Assembly: GCA_032161105.1 (NCBI GenBank)
Contig: JAVHTD010000010.1
Source: Candidatus Thermosaccharophagus tengchongensis
Lineage (GTDB): Bacteria > Armatimonadota > Fervidibacteria > Fervidibacterales > Thermosaccharophagaceae
Direction: 5' to 3' (one strand)
Length of the DNA: 64,000 bases
Each line of letters begins with the position of its first letter. Position 1 is the stretch's first letter. This document shows, one piece after another, positions 2,600-8,772 of this stretch. The notes under the pieces were generated by a model. The model searched no databases. It had not been told where the DNA came from and worked only from the letters and a program-made list of their open reading frames with translations. The position numbers and the translations under genes were made by a program.

Positions 2600-5044
2600 C
2601 TATTCATCCCCCTCACTGTCGCGGTGTGCTTGTGCCGTGGCGCTGCTTAAAGCGTTGTCGCTTTGCACATCACGAGCATACTCACATTTGTCCGAACTGC
2701 ATTTGACGATAAGTTTTGAACGCTGCTTAACCTGAATTAGTGGTGAGCCGCAAATCGGGCACTGCTCACCCGTTGGCTTTCCGGGCAACAGGATGGTGCA
2801 CTTAGGGTAGTTGCTGCATCCGTAAAACACCTTCCCCCTGAACTTACCCTTGCGTGCTACTCTTGGGCGAAGGTAACCATTACAGCCATCTGCTGGGCAT
2901 GGTATCAAGTTGCTCTCATCAATCGGCATTGTGAACTTACACTGCGGATAGTTTGAGCAACCCCAAAATGCGCCGGTGCGACCGATGCGCTTGACCATTG
3001 GCGCACCGCAAACTTGACAGCTTCTTTCGGCGCTGCGGGCGTCTACTTCAACTTCGTATTGCCCCTCTTGCTCCCCCTCTTTGACTTGTTTGCTCGGCGC
3101 CTCGTGAATCGCTTCCTCTACCAGCTGGGCAGTGAATTTGCAATCCGGAAAGCCGCTGCACGCCAAGAACGGACCATAGCGGCTATACCTGATGACCATT
3201 CTCCTTCCGCACCTTGGACAAGCCTTATCAGTCTCAACACCACTAAACTGCTTCATACCCTCCTGTGCTCTCTCAAGTGCTTGCATGAACGGCTCATAGA
3301 ATGTCCGGACGACACTCACCCAATCGGCATTCCCCTCCTCAACGGCATCAAGATGCTCTTCCATTTGCGCTGTGAACTTGATGTTGATTAACTCGGGGAA
3401 GTGCGCAACGAGCTGGTCGTTGACAAGCATTCCAAGAGGTGTGGCATGCAGCTTCTTTCCCCTCACCTCAACATAGCCTCGCTTGATTATCGTTGAAACA
3501 ATTGGCGCATAAGTGCTCGGGCGACCTATACCGTAGCGCTCCAGCGCTCTTATAAGCGTTGCCTGGGTATATCTTGATGGTGGCTTTGTCCAATGCTGCT
3601 TCGGCATTACATCAAGTAGTCTTAACCTCTCACCAACTCTCACATCCGGAAGCCAACCCTCTTCCTCCCGCTCTTCCTCATCATCTCTACCCTCTTGGTA
3701 AACTGCCAAGTAGCCATCAAACTTGATCCTTGAACCAGTTGCGCAGAGCAAGTAATCTCCACCTTGAATGTCTATGCGCATGGTGTCATAAATTGCATCT
3801 GCCATTTGCGATGCAACAAACCTTTGCCAAATTAGGCTATAAAGCTCATGCTGAGCTCGGGTTAGATATGGTTCAACATTGTTCGGGTGACGCATGACTG
3901 ATGTTGGTCGTATGGCTTCGTGAGCATCTTGAGCTGAACGCTTTGGGCGATATTGCCTTGGCTTCTCTGGGAGGTATTGTTCGCCAAAAGCGGTCATGAT
4001 GAACTCTCTTGCCTGTTGAATAGCCTCCGGGGCAACGCGTGTTGAATCCGTGCGCATGTAGGTGATCAAACCGACGGAGCCTTCATCGCCAATTTCAATC
4101 CCCTCGTAAAGCTGTTGAGCGACGCGCATCGTCTGTTCAGGATTGAACCCGAGCTTCCTTGAAGCCTCCTGCTGCAGCGTTGATGTGATAAACGGTGGCG
4201 GTGGTGGCTTCGCTTTATCCTCACGCTTTAGGTCAATGACGATGAAGTGCTGCTGCCTGAGCTCATCAGCGATGCGCAACGCTTCCTGTTCATTCGGTAT
4301 CTGAATGTCGCTTCCGGCGAACTTTATCAGCTTAGCTTCAAATGGCTCATCTCTATCTTCGGGCGTGAGCAACACCGTTATCGTCCAATACTCCTGCGGG
4401 ACAAAATTTTGTATCTCTCGCTCGCGCTCACAAACAAGCATCAGTGCGACTGATTGGACGCGCCCAGCACTGAGTCCCTTTGCCACTTTGCTCCACAGCA
4501 GGGGGCTTAAGTGATAGCCGAATATTCTGTCAAGGACTCGCCGTGCCTGTTGCGCGTTGACTAATCGCATGTCAATGTCCCTTGGCGAGCTGAGCGCCCT
4601 TAAGACGGCGTCCCTCGTTATCTCGTGGAACTCAATCCGCTTTGTGTATGGGCAGTTGATCAGCTGAGCTACATGCCACGCAATAGCTTCCCCTTCTCTA
4701 TCTGGGTCTGAGGCGATGTAGACTTCCCTCGCCCTCTTCGCGGCTTCTTTTAACTCATTGATGACCTTGCGCCTTGAGGGGATGACGACATACTTTGGTG
4801 CAAAGTCATTCTCAACATCCACTCCAAACGAACTTTCGGGAAGATCACGCACATGTCCCATCGTGCTCAATACTTTGAATCCAGCTCCAACGATGCCCTG
4901 CACTGTGCGAGCCTTCGCCGGCGATTCAACAACGATCAACTTCTCGCCATTACATTCGTTTTGCGGTGATGCAATCCCTCTTTCCCTCTTCCCTTTTGAA
5001 CGCTTACTGACTTTGCCCTTGGAGCGCACATGCTTGCGCATCAC
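2600..5044 (-). CDS. topA: DNA topoisomerase I with C-terminal Zn-ribbon repeats
   Basis: IVVESPAK, DPDREGEAI, SAGRVQS, ITYMRTDS, DAHEAIRPT, GIGRPSTY; repeated CPxCG...CSxYPxC. Confidence 0.98.
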   Translation of the reverse strand: MMRKHVRSKGKVSKRSKGKRERGIASPQNECNGEKLIVVESPAKARTVQGIVGAGFKVLSTMGHVRDLPESSFGVDVENDFAPKYVVIPSRRKVINELKEAAKRAREVYIASDPDREGEAIAWHVAQLINCPYTKRIEFHEITRDAVLRALSSPRDIDMRLVNAQQARRVLDRIFGYHLSPLLWSKVAKGLSAGRVQSVALMLVCEREREIQNFVPQEYWTITVLLTPEDRDEPFEAKLIKFAGSDIQIPNEQEALRIADELRQQHFIVIDLKREDKAKPPPPPFITSTLQQEASRKLGFNPEQTMRVAQQLYEGIEIGDEGSVGLITYMRTDSTRVAPEAIQQAREFIMTAFGEQYLPEKPRQYRPKRSAQDAHEAIRPTSVMRHPNNVEPYLTRAQHELYSLIWQRFVASQMADAIYDTMRIDIQGGDYLLCATGSRIKFDGYLAVYQEGRDDEEEREEEGWLPDVRVGERLRLLDVMPKQHWTKPPSRYTQATLIRALERYGIGRPSTYAPIVSTIIKRGYVEVRGKKLHATPLGMLVNDQLVAHFPELINIKFTAQMEEHLDAVEEGNADWVSVVRTFYEPFMQALERAQEGMKQFSGVETDKACPRCGRRMVIRYSRYGPFLACSGFPDCKFTAQLVEEAIHEAPSKQVKEGEQEGQYEVEVDARSAERSCQVCGAPMVKRIGRTGAFWGCSNYPQCKFTMPIDESNLIPCPADGCNGYLRPRVARKGKFRGKVFYGCSNYPKCTILLPGKPTGEQCPICGSPLIQVKQRSKLIVKCSSDKCEYARDVQSDNALSSATAQAHRDSEGDE

Positions 5045-5080
5045 TACGCATCCCCCGAGGTATTAACGCTCAATCAAAAA

Positions 5081-5154
5081 TGGGCCGGGCAGGATTTGAA
5101 CCTGCGACCTTGGGATTAAGAGTCCCCTGCTCTACCTGGCTGAGCTACCGGCCC
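5081..5154 (-). tRNA. tRNA-Lys(CTT)
   Basis: GGGCCGG acceptor stem, anticodon arm GGGGA-CTCTTAA-TCCCA, GGTTCAAATCC T-arm; CCA not encoded. Confidence 0.95.
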
Positions 5155-5504
5155 ACTGCAGGTCAATTGTGCTAACAACGATATAAACGCTTCATTGCTT
5201 TGGGCTCTTACTACCGGTGTTCAAATTATAACGCATGCAAGTGCCCACATCATTTCGCCATGCTGCGTTAAATCTGCCCGCGCTGCCAGCCGCACAAGTG
5301 GACAGCTAACTTCACTGCCAAATCAAGATATGCAACCGAGATGCCCACAATGCCAATATGCCGAGACAGCCTCTAACCCATTTGCTGCCTCACTCAGAGT
5401 AGTTGCCTCGCAACAGTTGATAGAAGCGCTCAGCTACAACTAAGCATCGCTTTTCCCTCTGCTCCATTAGCCATATTGGGATAGGACCAAAATTGTAACC
5501 GCTC

Positions 5505-5975
5505 TCAAAACGAAACAGTCCACATCACCCTGATCTCGCATCGGGTTAATTTCCTCCTTTCAAACCCCCAGTCAAATCTTTCCACCTCAAACTTTGGTGG
5601 GGATACACAGGTAACAACTAACCCGTTGTCAAACGAGAACTGGTTTCCGTCCTGGGTAAAACTCTTGGCATTGACATGCAGGCAATAGGTTGCTCTAAGT
5701 TTGGGTCCGTTCCATTGGTCTCGCAAAACAAAATAATCGTGCCGTTCTGGGTGGCGTATGAATATGACTGTGCGACGATATGACGAAGATCGCTCGAAAG
5801 GCGAAGCACACATGGTTGCCCTGGTGTGGGATTGTAGTTGGCAAGCGGCCACTCGTGTGCCAAGCGGAGAGCTTTGCCTGAGGGTATAACTCCATCTAAT
5901 CCCTCAATCAGTTGATTAAGCCCCTCTGTTCCATAGCCGCCAATATAAACGCAATTTGGTGCCACAGCGACAGAA
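5505..5975 (-). pseudogene. Degraded gene fragment(s); the YRRTVIF...DYFVLRD segment resembles the C-terminal domain of heparinase II/III-like proteins
   Basis: Protein-like sequence is split across two frames with no clear start or RBS; lies between two tRNAs. Confidence 0.4.
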
Positions 5976-6058
5976 GTCAACTGGATTAAGCCTTTAGCGA
6001 ATACAGCTGCATTCAAGATGCGAGAGCCACTGCATCTCTTCAAAAGCATTATTCGGTA

Positions 6059-6136
6059 TGGCGCGCCCGGAGGGATTTGAACCCCCGACCCCGGGATCCG
6101 AAGTCCCGCGCTCTATCCAGACTGAGCTACGGGCGC
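6059..6136 (-). tRNA. tRNA-Arg(TCG)
   Basis: GCGCCCG/CGGGCGC acceptor stem, anticodon arm CGGGA-CTTCGGA-TCCCG, A20 in D-loop, encoded CCA. Confidence 0.93.
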
Positions 6137-6162
6137 GCCGTGCTTACTCACGCAATTGGCTA

Positions 6163-6254
6163 AGGCGGGCCTGGGAATCGAACCCAGCCTCTGCCTTACA
6201 TCGGCAGAGCCGACGGATTTGCGATCCGTGGGGCACACCAGCACCATACCCGCC
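6163..6254 (-). tRNA. Non-canonical tRNA-Sec-like tRNA with GCA (Cys) anticodon, U73 and long variable arm
   Basis: GGCGGGT-AT-GGTGC-TGGT-GTGCC-CC-ACGGA-TCGCAAA-TCCGT-CGG-CTCTGCC-GATGTAA-GGCAGAG-G-CTGGG-TTCGATT-CCCAG-GCCCGCC-T; all stems pair (some G-U). Confidence 0.85.
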
Positions 6255-6320
6255 ACTTCGGAAAATGCGCATTAACTTCCCCACTTCCTCCATGATGAAT
6301 GAGCCATCCTTTTCCCCTCA

Positions 6321-6911
6321 TCACCCAACAAGCAGCTTGAAAATGGCGGCAAGCAGCGCAACTAAGAGCGGAATTAACATACCAAACAACCATCGCTCAA
6401 GAAGGACGAACCGCCTCTCAAATTGCGCAAACCGCACCCTTATTTCGCCTCTCAGCTCTTCAAATCGTCTATCCATCTCACCTCTTAGCTCTTCAAACCG
6501 CTTGTCCATTTCACTGAACCGCCTATCCATTTCACCTCTTAACTCTTCAAACCGCTTATCCATTTCACCGAACCGCCTGTCCATTTCGCCTCTTAACTCT
6601 TCAAACCGCCTGTCCATCTCACTCCTCAATTCCTCAAACCGTTTGTTCATCTCACCCCTCAATTCTTCAAACCGCCTGTCCATCTCACTCCTCAATTCCT
6701 CAAATTGCCTATCTGCCTCGCCTCTTGAATATTCAATCTCCCGTTGGAGCGAACCTATGCGGGCTTCAAAGTAGCGTTCAAAGTATGGCGGCACCTCTGG
6801 CACAAGGGGCGCTACAACTGTCACGAGTGTGCGAAGGAAGTTCTCAACAGCCTCCTCGCTCATCCCAAGCCTGCGCGCAAGCTCATCAATCACTTGCTGC
6901 CTACTCGTCAT
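6321..6911 (-). CDS. Membrane-anchored coiled-coil repeat protein (DUF1640/CCDC90-like head-stalk-anchor layout)
   Basis: GGAGGA RBS; 7 RFEELRGEMDR-type 11-mers plus 7-mers; C-terminal hydrophobic helix WLFGMLIPLLVALLAAIF. Confidence 0.8.
   Translation of the reverse strand: MTSRQQVIDELARRLGMSEEAVENFLRTLVTVVAPLVPEVPPYFERYFEARIGSLQREIEYSRGEADRQFEELRSEMDRRFEELRGEMNKRFEELRSEMDRRFEELRGEMDRRFGEMDKRFEELRGEMDRRFSEMDKRFEELRGEMDRRFEELRGEIRVRFAQFERRFVLLERWLFGMLIPLLVALLAAIFKLLVG
6435..6710. repeat. Imperfect tandem 33-bp and 21-bp coding repeats
   Basis: Recurring units such as ...ctcttcaaaccgcctgtccat... on the + strand. Confidence 0.9.
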
Positions 6912-7049
6912 TGCATATCCTCCAAACAAAAGTTGAAAGCGTGGGCACCACGCATAGCATAAAGAGCAACCGACCTTTCAATGAGGGAATCTTCAAGCAT
7001 GGATGCGAACTTAATCCAACTCCGTTGATGGTGTTCATGCTGGAGAATG

Positions 7050-7123
7050 GGCGAGCGGCGGGACTCGAACCCGCGACCCCTGGGGCCACAGCCCAGTGCT
7101 CTAACCGCTGAGCTACGCCCGCC
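7050..7123 (-). tRNA. tRNA-His(GTG)
   Basis: Encoded G-1, C73, anticodon arm CTGGG-CTGTGGC-CCCAG. Confidence 0.95.
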
Positions 7124-7193
7124 ACAAACTTAACCATTCAAATTCTTCAAACTCACCACACCGTATTCAGCAGTTTGCAGCCTCAACCTTGTG

Positions 7194-7267
7194 CGCCCCG
7201 GGCAGGACTCGAACCCGCGACCAGACGCTTAGAAGGCGCCTGCTCTATCCACCTGAGCTACCGGGGC
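7194..7267 (-). tRNA. tRNA-Arg(TCT)
   Basis: GCCCCGG acceptor stem, anticodon arm GGCGC-CTTCTAA-GCGTC. Confidence 0.95.
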
Positions 7268-7310
7268 ACTCATCAAGTCCTCTTTCACATGCAAAGTATC
7301 CATCTAAAAT

Positions 7311-7385
7311 TGGAGCGGGAGACGGGACTCGAACCCGCGACCTACAGCTTGGAAGGCTGTCGCTCTACCTCTGAGCTACTCCCGC
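7311..7385 (-). tRNA. tRNA-Gly(TCC)
   Basis: GCGGGAG acceptor stem, anticodon arm ACAGC-CTTCCAA-GCTGT, U73, encoded CCA. Confidence 0.96.
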
Positions 7386-7409
7386 TCATAACCTATTGCA
7401 ATTGCCATA

Positions 7410-7484
7410 TCGGGGCGACCGGACTTGAACCGGTGACCTCCTGCTCCCAAGGCAGGCGCGCTAACCAAACTGCGCTACGCCCCG
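7410..7484 (-). tRNA. tRNA-Pro(TGG)
   Basis: CGGGGCG acceptor stem, anticodon arm CCTGC-CTTGGGA-GCAGG. Confidence 0.96.
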
Positions 7485-7605
7485 AATTGATCAACCTCAC
7501 CACACTTTTATTTTAGCGCACTCACTTTGAGCACATTCGTGAAGGGGCTTGCGCCGTTGATTAAGCACTAAGCACATTTGTGTAGATGACTTTAGCAGTG
7601 CTTCT

Positions 7606-8772
7606 TCACTTCACCTCGGCGCGCATTATTAACTCTGTCACGCTGCACGGCTGCAGACCCTTCTGGAGCAGCCCTTCAATTATGTCTGACAGGGAGTTTG
7701 ATGTGACCTTGCTTGTTGCGTGCAAAAGGACAATGTCGCCAGATGTTGATTTCGTCACCACACGCCTTATAACTTCCCCCTCACTTACTCCCTTCTTCCA
7801 GTCCAAACCATCAACAGCCCAGTAAGTCGGAATGTAACCCGATGAGAGTAAGACCCTTACGACCCTCTCATCCCTGTCGCCATATGGTGGGCGAACATAC
7901 GGAGTCAATGGACCATCGTTCCCGATGGCTTTAAGTATTGACTGCTCAGCGTGCTTGACTTCACCAACTATCTCGTCGTCAGAGAGTTCCGTCAACTTCG
8001 GATGCGAGTAAGTGTGATTGCCGATTTCATGCCCATGTAAAGCTATCGCCTTTAAGGTGCTCGGAAAGCTATCAGCCCAATGCCCGGTCACGAAAAATGT
8101 CGCACGCACATTGTATCGTTTCAACACCTCAAGTATGGGCGGCACATACTCGTTCGTAAAATGAGCATCAAATGAGAGTGCGACCAATCCCTCACTTACA
8201 GACAGGCGTGATAGCTCAAGTTGCCAAACCGGCTTACGGACTTCAATTCCATCAAGTGCTCCCTTAATGGCGGACGGCAAATGTGCCTTGAGAGCGTCAA
8301 TTGATGGGCGACCCAAACCGTGAGCTGGTGGAGATATAGATCGTGTGCCTTCATTTTTATCGGTGCGATGTTCTGTTGCGCCCTCAGCTTGCGACTTTAC
8401 CTCATCAATAGGATGAACTTTCTCCCTCGGCTTAGATGGGCGCTCAGCAATACGATGTTCGGATTCAACTGCTCTATTGGGGCGCAGGACTTTGACCCTT
8501 TCATTTGAGCTTGGGCGCTGGCTTTGATCCGCGTTGCGGACGCTAACATAAATCCCGATGCAAAGTGAAACGATGAGCATCATGATGAGCAGCAACACTT
8601 TTGCGCTCCCGCAATGGTGTGAGTTAAACATCCGGCAATTCAACTTCACCACTCGCTTAAACATTGCCCAACCTTTCACCACCATTCTGGCGAAGACACA
8701 CAGCGTGTCTAAAACAGCAGCATTGGCTTCGCATAATGTCGGCGAGACGCAAGCACTCACTGTATGCCGCAA
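7606..8772 (-). CDS. Membrane-anchored polysaccharide deacetylase (NodB/CE4); real start probably downstream, about 8664
   Basis: N-terminal TM helix; SFDA, HEIGNHTYSHP, RPPYG, DWK, IVLLH motifs. Confidence 0.9.
   Translation of the reverse strand: MRHTVSACVSPTLCEANAAVLDTLCVFARMVVKGWAMFKRVVKLNCRMFNSHHCGSAKVLLLIMMLIVSLCIGIYVSVRNADQSQRPSSNERVKVLRPNRAVESEHRIAERPSKPREKVHPIDEVKSQAEGATEHRTDKNEGTRSISPPAHGLGRPSIDALKAHLPSAIKGALDGIEVRKPVWQLELSRLSVSEGLVALSFDAHFTNEYVPPILEVLKRYNVRATFFVTGHWADSFPSTLKAIALHGHEIGNHTYSHPKLTELSDDEIVGEVKHAEQSILKAIGNDGPLTPYVRPPYGDRDERVVRVLLSSGYIPTYWAVDGLDWKKGVSEGEVIRRVVTKSTSGDIVLLHATSKVTSNSLSDIIEGLLQKGLQPCSVTELIMRAEVK

Follow-up and report, generated by a model that had tools for sequence, protein, structure and literature searches.

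The closest described relatives of the tRNA reported here are the selC* tRNA-Cys species (Mukai et al. 2017), which resemble tRNA-Sec, carry U73 together with a GCA or UCA anticodon, and were found in genomes with a full selenocysteine (Sec) apparatus (PMC5389517). As described in that survey, each phylum has its own selC* arrangement, and an 8/4 acceptor/T branch with an A51a bulge is restricted to "certain delta-proteobacteria" (PMC5389517). One such molecule, the tRNA-Cys(GCA) of Desulfotomaculum nigrificans, is shunned by EF-Tu and delivered by SelB (Vargas-Rodriguez 2018, as recounted in PMC11415595 and PMC13582414); it decodes SECIS-linked UGA as Cys and was named tRNAReC. In the accounts given by these two papers, the recoding role has been demonstrated only for the D. 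nigrificans tRNA, in E. coli. The operational definition of tRNAReC given in PMC13582414 is a length of at least 80 nt, a GCA or UCA anticodon, a discriminator U and alignability to a reference, and by that paper's count tRNAReC-like genes are present in five of five Armatimonadota genomes that have UXXU hydrogenases. Among the entries in Supplementary Table 1 of the same paper are tRNAReC(GCA) genes at JBGOEK010000024.1 12506-12598 and JBGOEV010000032.1 7825-7917, with the taxon given as GTDB c__HRBIN17, f__DRYI01, g__DRYI01.

We analyzed a 64,000-nt stretch (the window) of contig JAVHTD010000010.1 from Candidatus Thermosaccharophagus tengchongensis, which belongs to a thermophilic lineage of the Armatimonadota, class Fervidibacteria (assembly GCA_032161105.1; 2.74 Mb in 44 contigs, 52% G+C, 97.4% complete). 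ARAGORN called a 92-nt tRNA-Cys(gca) at 6163-6254 (-), with the following parts:

6163-6254, minus strand: tRNAReC or selC*-type tRNA-Cys(GCA), 92 nt, no encoded CCA (ARAGORN, RF01852, fold, model R1)
6163, minus strand: discriminator U73 (sequence and fold; invariant in alignment A1)
6171-6187, minus strand: T-arm with 5-bp stem CUGGG/CCCAG and loop UUCGAUU (comparison with the genome's own tRNA-Sec)
6189-6209, minus strand: long extra arm with a loop of 7 nt on a 7-bp stem (fold)
6220-6222, minus strand: anticodon GCA (ARAGORN and fold; the same in eight of eight aligned Fervidibacteria sequences)
6223-6224, minus strand: anticodon-loop positions 32 (U) and 33 (C) (sequence)
6232-6245, minus strand: D-arm resembling that of tRNA-Sec, with a UGGU tetraloop on a 5-bp stem (fold)

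The minimum-free-energy and centroid structures of this tRNA were the same cloverleaf (-49.6 kcal/mol; z = -3.95), and none of 200 shuffled sequences was as stable. The acceptor has 7 bp, the seventh pair being U.G, and is followed by A8-U9. Since A8 faces G, there is no eighth acceptor pair; an 8/4 branch was thereby ruled out, and the fold is unambiguously a plain 7/5 branch of 12 bp. The anticodon loop reads U-C-G-C-A-A-A, and the extra arm comprises 21 nt, compared with the variable loop of 4-5 nt in a class I tRNA-Cys of ~74 nt. When covariance models were applied, the tRNA-Sec model RF01852 matched the sequence end to end with 46.7 bits (E = 2e-8), which is 0.3 bits below its gathering score of 47; the general Rfam tRNA model did not report the gene at its gathering score and reported six neighboring tRNAs. 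The original prediction had proposed such scoring and had described a 92-nt tRNA-Sec-shaped molecule with a 7/5 branch, a UGGU D-loop, A8, a 7-bp extra arm and the cysteine identity set of GCA and U73. ARAGORN, RF01852 and the fold agree with it in all of these points.

We then compared the gene with the published class. Its 92 nt include a long variable arm with a 7-bp stem, the anticodon GCA and U73 are both invariant in the aligned relatives, and the match to RF01852 marks the body as tRNA-Sec-like, with a D-stem of 5 bp rather than 6. The two tRNAReC(GCA) genes listed in the literature coincide with our loci L065 and L114, and their tRNAs are orthologues from congeners, 93% identical to the one in the window. 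A covariance model (R1), built from an alignment of eight Fervidibacteria sequences (A1), scored the window's gene at 107.3 bits and also matched loci of Desulfacinum infernum and D. hydrothermale (L022, L030) with 71-74 bits, both of which are published selC* hosts. The window's gene is therefore very likely a functional member of the selC* tRNA-Cys/tRNAReC class. As a kind of molecule it is not new, because it fits a published class and its congener orthologues are already tabulated as tRNAReC(GCA). Novelty had been expected from the 7/5 branch as opposed to the 8/4 type, an expectation that did not survive our parsing of the sequences listed in Supplementary sheet 3 of PMC5389517: the Thermodesulfatator selC* entry is 7/5, and the class is not confined to 8/4. 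The original prediction had also made novelty depend on the tRNA lying outside the selC* and allo-tRNA classes already described, and the orthologues tabulated in PMC13582414 settle this against it. In the record provided by these papers, selC*-type tRNAs were described in 2017, assigned a function in 2018, and tabulated for this genus in 2026 alongside double-Sec-codon hydrogenases.

Within the Armatimonadota, BLAST detected the tRNAReC gene in each of the three remaining genus genomes (93% identity) and in four of 20 genomes of the sister family (71-74%). With R1 at a threshold of 93 bits or more, it was found in four of four genus genomes and eight of 20 sister-family genomes, with no such match in the other 77 Armatimonadota genomes searched; the 18 lower-scoring R1 loci that were inspected were all tRNA-Sec(tca). 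Among the four congeners, eight columns varied, corresponding to 0 of 62 paired versus 8 of 30 unpaired positions. Five of the eight lie in the extra-arm loop, and the others are positions 32 and 33 and the bulge that follows the anticodon stem. Between the genus and the sister family, both sides had changed in the seventh acceptor pair, in two anticodon-stem pairs and in most of the extra-arm stem, which reads CUCUGCC/GGCAGAG in the genus and CGGAACG/CGUUCCG in the sister family. One sister-family copy, in G013, has an acceptor mismatch. The gene was also recovered without any internal difference, C33 included, in contigs of three sequencing runs from three studies; the flanks differed from the window in two of them (X3 and X9), and run X1 was identical throughout. 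In the metatranscriptome run X20, contigs matched only the neighboring, widely conserved tRNAs, with 3-5 mismatches, leaving the gene without usable cover.

In the sister family (Ca. Fervidibacter), each of the eight genomes with the tRNA has a small Rdx/SelW-like CxxC gene starting ~40 nt downstream of it (L155:1201-1461 (-), L014:1205-1465 (-), L015, L016, L017 and L156-L158), its CxxC being encoded as TGT..TGC. Three further sister-family genomes have the Rdx gene with no tRNAReC match, and an Rdx paralogue, G013:C324, contains an in-frame TGA. A link to SelW/Rdx was rejected as an explanation of the window's tRNAReC gene, because its genome has no Rdx homologue (best tblastn E = 0.036).

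Beyond the phylum, a degenerate pattern scan using one genome per species returned at least 119 stretches, and ARAGORN called a long tRNA-Cys(gca) in at least 108 of these. By record title, the matches listed include Acidobacteriota, Nitrospirota, Thermodesulfobacteriota/Deltaproteobacteria, Bacillota/Firmicutes, Actinomycetota, Cloacimonadota, Planctomycetota, Armatimonadota, Spirochaetota and one Thermoflexales MAG. R1 was run on 100 loci, consisting of 88 of the at least 119 scan loci (L018-L109 without L033, L065, L074 and L104) and 12 Fervidibacteria loci, and gave 99 matched sequences, of which 95 were distinct. Across these 95, 95.1% of cells were paired and 26 of 31 pairs had changed on both sides. 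In this alignment, which was fitted to R1 and so favors the structure, the covariation score was 0.679, compared with 0.18 for shuffles (0 of 500 reached the observed score) and 0.07-0.11 for slid partners. The fitting also trims some 13-bp members, making any tally of branch types rough. Compensatory stem changes in relatives, for which the original prediction had suggested a search, were thus present both between genus and sister family and family-wide. Kept in relatives, strongly covarying and, within the genus, variable only where unpaired, the gene is not a pseudogene but, as judged from these comparisons, a conserved and structurally constrained tRNA under purifying selection. Furthermore, R1 scores reached 80.1 bits (L059) for class members in other phyla, as against 58.0 bits for the genome's own tRNA-Sec, which places the window's gene in this family rather than as a recent local copy of selC.

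We also looked at what adjoins these genes. Of 80 loci (L018-L097, the first 80 of at least 119), 30 encode a SelB homologue no more than ~2.5 kb away from the tRNAReC-type gene; these 30 belong to Deltaproteobacteria/Thermodesulfobacteriota, Nitrospirota, Coriobacteriia, a Cloacimonadales MAG and Ca. Geothermocultor. None of the same 80 loci, with flanks of up to 2.5 kb, showed a CysRS homologue near the gene, and no SelB homologue was found beside the tRNA in the Fervidibacteria loci.

In the window, the gene belongs to a group of seven tRNA genes that ARAGORN found on the minus strand at 5080-7485, arranged as follows:

7049-7485, minus strand: upstream part of the array, tRNA-Pro(tgg) 7409-7485, tRNA-Gly(tcc) 7311-7385, tRNA-Arg(tct) 7193-7267 and tRNA-His(gtg) 7049-7122 (ARAGORN, Rfam)
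6321-6929, minus strand: repeat-rich coiled-coil ORF of 202 aa with a hydrophobic C-terminal tail, between tRNA-His and the tRNAReC gene
5080-6136, minus strand: downstream part of the array, tRNA-Arg(tcg) 6059-6136 and tRNA-Lys(ctt) 5080-5155, ~900 nt apart (ARAGORN)

The tRNAReC gene lies 26 nt upstream of tRNA-Arg(tcg), and ARAGORN thus bore out both this spacing and the predicted co-orientation with a housekeeping tRNA array. In two congeners, the array is compact, with the order Pro-Gly-Arg-His-(11 nt)-tRNAReC-(47 nt)-Arg-(17 nt)-Lys, for which reason co-transcription of the tRNAReC gene with essential tRNAs appears likely. Compared with these two congeners, about 0.8 and 0.9 kb are inserted on either side of the tRNAReC gene in the window's genome. 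A scan of 4900-7700 for promoters and terminators returned one promoter-like and two terminator-like sites, below the shuffle means, and no candidate transferase was found among the neighboring ORFs.

The inserted stretches have features of their own. The 202-aa ORF at 6321-6929 (-) consists of RRFEELRGEMD-type repeats and had only sub-threshold matches to coiled-coil Pfam families; the gap in which it sits measures ~840 nt in congener L013 and 11 nt in two congeners. The ~900 nt between tRNA-Arg(tcg) and tRNA-Lys(ctt) (5156-6058), which are 17 nt in two congeners, hold a 143-aa ORF at 5618-6049 (-) without a Pfam match, and the run contigs include a joined form that skips 5111-6109.

We next surveyed the Sec and Cys machinery of the whole assembly. 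ARAGORN identified a canonical 74-nt tRNA-Cys(gca) at C5:103083-103156 and a true tRNA-Sec(tca) at C23:35895-35989, the latter with 95 nt, an 8/5 branch, G73 and 75.9 bits on RF01852, so that all three tRNAs coexist in the genome; the original prediction had suggested a search for the latter two. Odd ARAGORN calls elsewhere (on C21 a His of 87 nt and a Ser(act) of 83 nt, and on C9 an Arg of 98 nt) had poor stems and were rejected as false positives. The genome has a single selB, with winged-helix domains and unlinked to the tRNAReC gene, and a single cysS, whose product has catalytic and DALR_2 anticodon-binding domains; no second copy of either was found in the genome. The specialized synthetase or elongation factor that the original prediction had envisaged is therefore not seen here. 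The selD gene (C5:91187-92119 (-)) contains one in-frame TGA, which suggests that SelD is probably itself a selenoprotein. A group-4 [NiFe] hydrogenase large subunit (C1 at ~107.3 kb; L178:1051-2400) contains a pair of in-frame TGA codons spaced by three codons and, with TGA read as U, reads ...AERIUGIUGF..., the UXXU motif of a [NiFeSe] hydrogenase of the type reported in PMC13582414. Among the Sec genes that had been proposed for checking, selC, selB and selD were thus present, and selA (PF03841, TIGR00474) was not found in the 97.4%-complete assembly, nor in one congener (G001). Since relatives carry selA (two of three congeners and 17 of 20 sister-family genomes), the lineage uses Sec and the missing selA is probably an assembly gap. 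The indirect Sep pathway was rejected, the SepSecS/SepCysS family PF05889 being found in 0 of 25 genomes.

A further feature concerns the anticodon loop. U33 is near-universal in tRNAs, and the base 5' of the anticodon in the window's tRNA, which the original prediction had listed without remark, is C. Positions 32/33 read UC, CC, UU and GC in the four congeners, C33 being present in three, while GCA, A37, A38 and all stems are fixed; in the sister family, 12 of 12 sequences have YU. Among the matches listed and the Fervidibacteria, C33 occurred in 10 of 109 distinct class sequences and U33 in 99 of 109, counts that kinship inflates. The loci with a replaced U33 or a varying position 32 are the window's and L011-L013, L058, L062, L075, L083, L102, L113 and L115, together with L043, a class sequence that has A33. 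C33 was found, among the matches listed, in this genus, a Terriglobia/Acidobacteriota group, one Nitrospirota MAG and Desulfofundulus thermobenzoicus. By comparison, none of 32 other tRNAs and none of 15 tRNA-Sec in the same loci departed from U33, which was also present in 48 of 48 credible other tRNAs of the window's genome. U33, almost invariant in tRNAs generally, has thus been replaced repeatedly in the tRNAReC class, apparently with several independent origins as far as these sequences indicate. In the published list, Desulfotomaculum gibsoniae has a second copy, which likewise carries C33 (PMC5389517). Besides this genus, at least four lineages of the class thus show C33 or, in one case, A33. 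The terms "U33", "C33" and "position 33" had no match in the main text of that paper, and no discussion of position 33 surfaced in the literature on this tRNA class, in searches that were not aimed at it.

How might such a tRNA be used? In the explanation that we favor and regard as fairly probable as a whole, it is a functional tRNAReC providing backup Cys at Sec UGA codons. The single canonical CysRS would charge it with cysteine, reading U73 and GCA, and the SelB/SECIS machinery would then use it to insert Cys where UGA specifies Sec, in support of Sec-tRNASec; candidate sites are the UGA of selD and the pair of UGA codons in the UXXU hydrogenase. Besides the structure, conservation and class membership of the gene, the Sec genes of the genome, the SelB homologues near other class members and the published function of the class speak for this explanation. 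By analogy with the D. nigrificans tRNA, Cys charging and SelB-dependent insertion at Sec UGA codons in this very organism is, if only by a little, the likelier outcome. Several observations count against it. In a structural model of SelB (Itoh et al. 2015), a 13-bp helix gives selectivity for tRNA-Sec and turns the extra arm toward domain 3, whereas the extra arm of the 12-bp tRNA-Ser points away from that domain (PMC4605307). The tRNA tested experimentally, that of D. nigrificans, appears to be 8/5 in our own parsing of the published sequence. On this model, the 12-bp (7/5) branch would count against recognition by SelB, and the SelB route is uncertain. A single unlinked selB and a selA that was not found also count against SelB-dependent reading of UGA, and C33 with a freely varying position 32 is odd for any decoding tRNA.

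With only one SelB in the genome, either this factor accepts both geometries or tRNAReC uses EF-Tu as a second Cys isoacceptor. In the latter case, the tRNA would be charged by CysRS, carried by EF-Tu and read UGC/UGU, its Sec-like shape being a relic. Such an ordinary isoacceptor would agree with the unambiguous 7/5 branch, which is the canonical EF-Tu geometry, with a location in a housekeeping tRNA operon, with a genome devoid of dedicated selB or cysS paralogues, and with a 49-65 pair that is C-G here and G.U in the genome's own tRNA-Sec. However, a canonical tRNA-Cys(GCA) is already encoded at C5:103083-103156; a compensated 92-nt Sec-like architecture is hard to explain in a redundant tRNA; C33 and a variable position 32 speak against normal decoding being under strong selection; and the class co-occurs with Sec machinery, often adjoining selB, as is also reported in the survey of selC* (PMC5389517). 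We thus consider this alternative rather unlikely. The variation at positions 32 and 33 has led us to a third use that does not involve the ribosome. The Cys-charged tRNA would serve as a sensor or regulatory RNA or, as the original prediction had also proposed, donate its amino acid, and would keep GCA only as a CysRS identity element: in the genus these two positions drift as freely as the extra-arm loop around a fixed GCA, A37, A38 and stems, and C33, present in 10 of the 109 class tRNAs among the matches listed, is absent from the other tRNAs compared. Yet the tRNA has an intact, canonical T-loop and D-loop, no candidate transferase adjoins the gene, and U33 is retained in 12 of 12 sister-family sequences and in 99 of 109 class members among the matches listed. 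The activity published for the class takes place on the ribosome, too, according to PMC11415595 and PMC13582414, and an off-ribosome role is accordingly improbable.

Two further alternatives are less probable still. In one, the tRNA inserts Sec with a sense anticodon, being charged by SerRS, converted by SelA and delivered by SelB to UGC/UGU or UGA. In allo-tRNAs, SerRS is said to accept a long extra arm combined with U73 (PMC5389517), and a natural tRNA-Sec(GCA) is described from Aeromonas (PMC11415595), with a tRNAReU derivative offering a further likeness. Against this, U73 and GCA form the CysRS identity set, the true tRNA-Sec of the genome has G73 and an 8/5 branch, and a 12-bp branch departs from the length suited to the Sec enzymes, making Sec insertion by this tRNA very improbable. 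The other alternative, a decaying selC duplicate, would account for the noncanonical C33, for an RF01852 score just under the gathering score and for the acceptor mismatch of the sister-family copy in G013, but we regard such a pseudogene as the least probable of all. Across four species, loops changed and 0 of 62 paired positions were substituted; compensatory changes occurred across families; the gene was identical in contigs of three studies, with differing flanks in X3 and X9; and R1 places it nearer to class members of other phyla (up to 80.1 bits) than to the genome's own tRNA-Sec (58.0 bits).

Returning to the favored explanation, a functional tRNAReC supplying backup Cys, the genus provides a natural test case in which a single SelB faces a 12-bp, 7/5 Sec-like tRNA despite the 13-bp rule. 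We also entertained the idea that the tRNAReC of this genus has escaped normal decoding constraints, considering its drifting positions 32/33, its 12-bp branch and the single SelB; this idea is distinctly doubtful. If it is true, SelB/SECIS-forced decoding with a programmed G34-A mismatch may need no U-turn or, alternatively, the anticodon may be kept only as a CysRS handle for an off-ribosome role. The 7/5 branch faced by a single SelB and the repeated loss of U33 bear on whether positions annotated as "U" in such genomes are Sec or Cys.

Finally, we compared the window's tRNA with the known systems that it resembles. Allo-tRNAs share the 12-bp branch and the long extra arm and were likewise discovered as tRNA-Sec look-alikes, but their branches are 8/4 or 9/3 and that of the window's tRNA is 7/5, and the window's tRNA has neither their serine-type identity nor their varied anticodons. 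Bacterial tRNA-Sec, including the genome's own at C23:35895-35989, has in common with it the extra arm, the UGGU D-loop, an identical UUCGAUU T-loop and the match to RF01852, and the T-arms of the two tRNAs in this genome differ solely in the 49-65 pair. tRNA-Sec, on the other hand, shows a 6-bp D-stem and U33, together with the defining UCA, G73 and 8/5 (13-bp) branch; the genome's own tRNA-Sec has all three of these defining features, and the window's tRNA does not. The delta-proteobacterial selC* tRNA-Cys (8/4) agrees in its 12-bp branch, U73 and Sec-like body; unlike the window's tRNA, it has an 8/4 branch with an A51a bulge, often a UCA anticodon, and it is followed downstream by a second selB (selB*) and in some cases by a gene for a CysRS without an anticodon-binding domain (cysS*), whereas here a 7/5 branch and GCA are accompanied by one selB, one canonical cysS and tRNA-gene neighbors.

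The clostridial tRNAReC of D. nigrificans is alike in its Sec-like shape, long extra arm, D-stem with tetraloop, GCA and U73, and also in coexisting with a true tRNA-Sec and a canonical tRNA-Cys without a dedicated CysRS. It differs, in our own parsing, in that its acceptor has 8 bp and its 5-bp T-stem carries a bulged pyrimidine, which places it in the 13-bp class, compared with the clean 7/5 branch (12 bp) and C33 of the window's tRNA; charging by CysRS and use of SelB are reported for the clostridial tRNAReC only (via PMC11415595 and PMC13582414). Nearest of all are the g__DRYI01 tRNAReC(GCA) entries of PMC13582414. In the sections of that paper on which we draw, the 7/5 branch, C33, the variation at position 32 and the operon context receive no comment, and the entries themselves are orthologues of the window's gene, with 93% identity, in genomes that carry the same UXXU hydrogenase motif.
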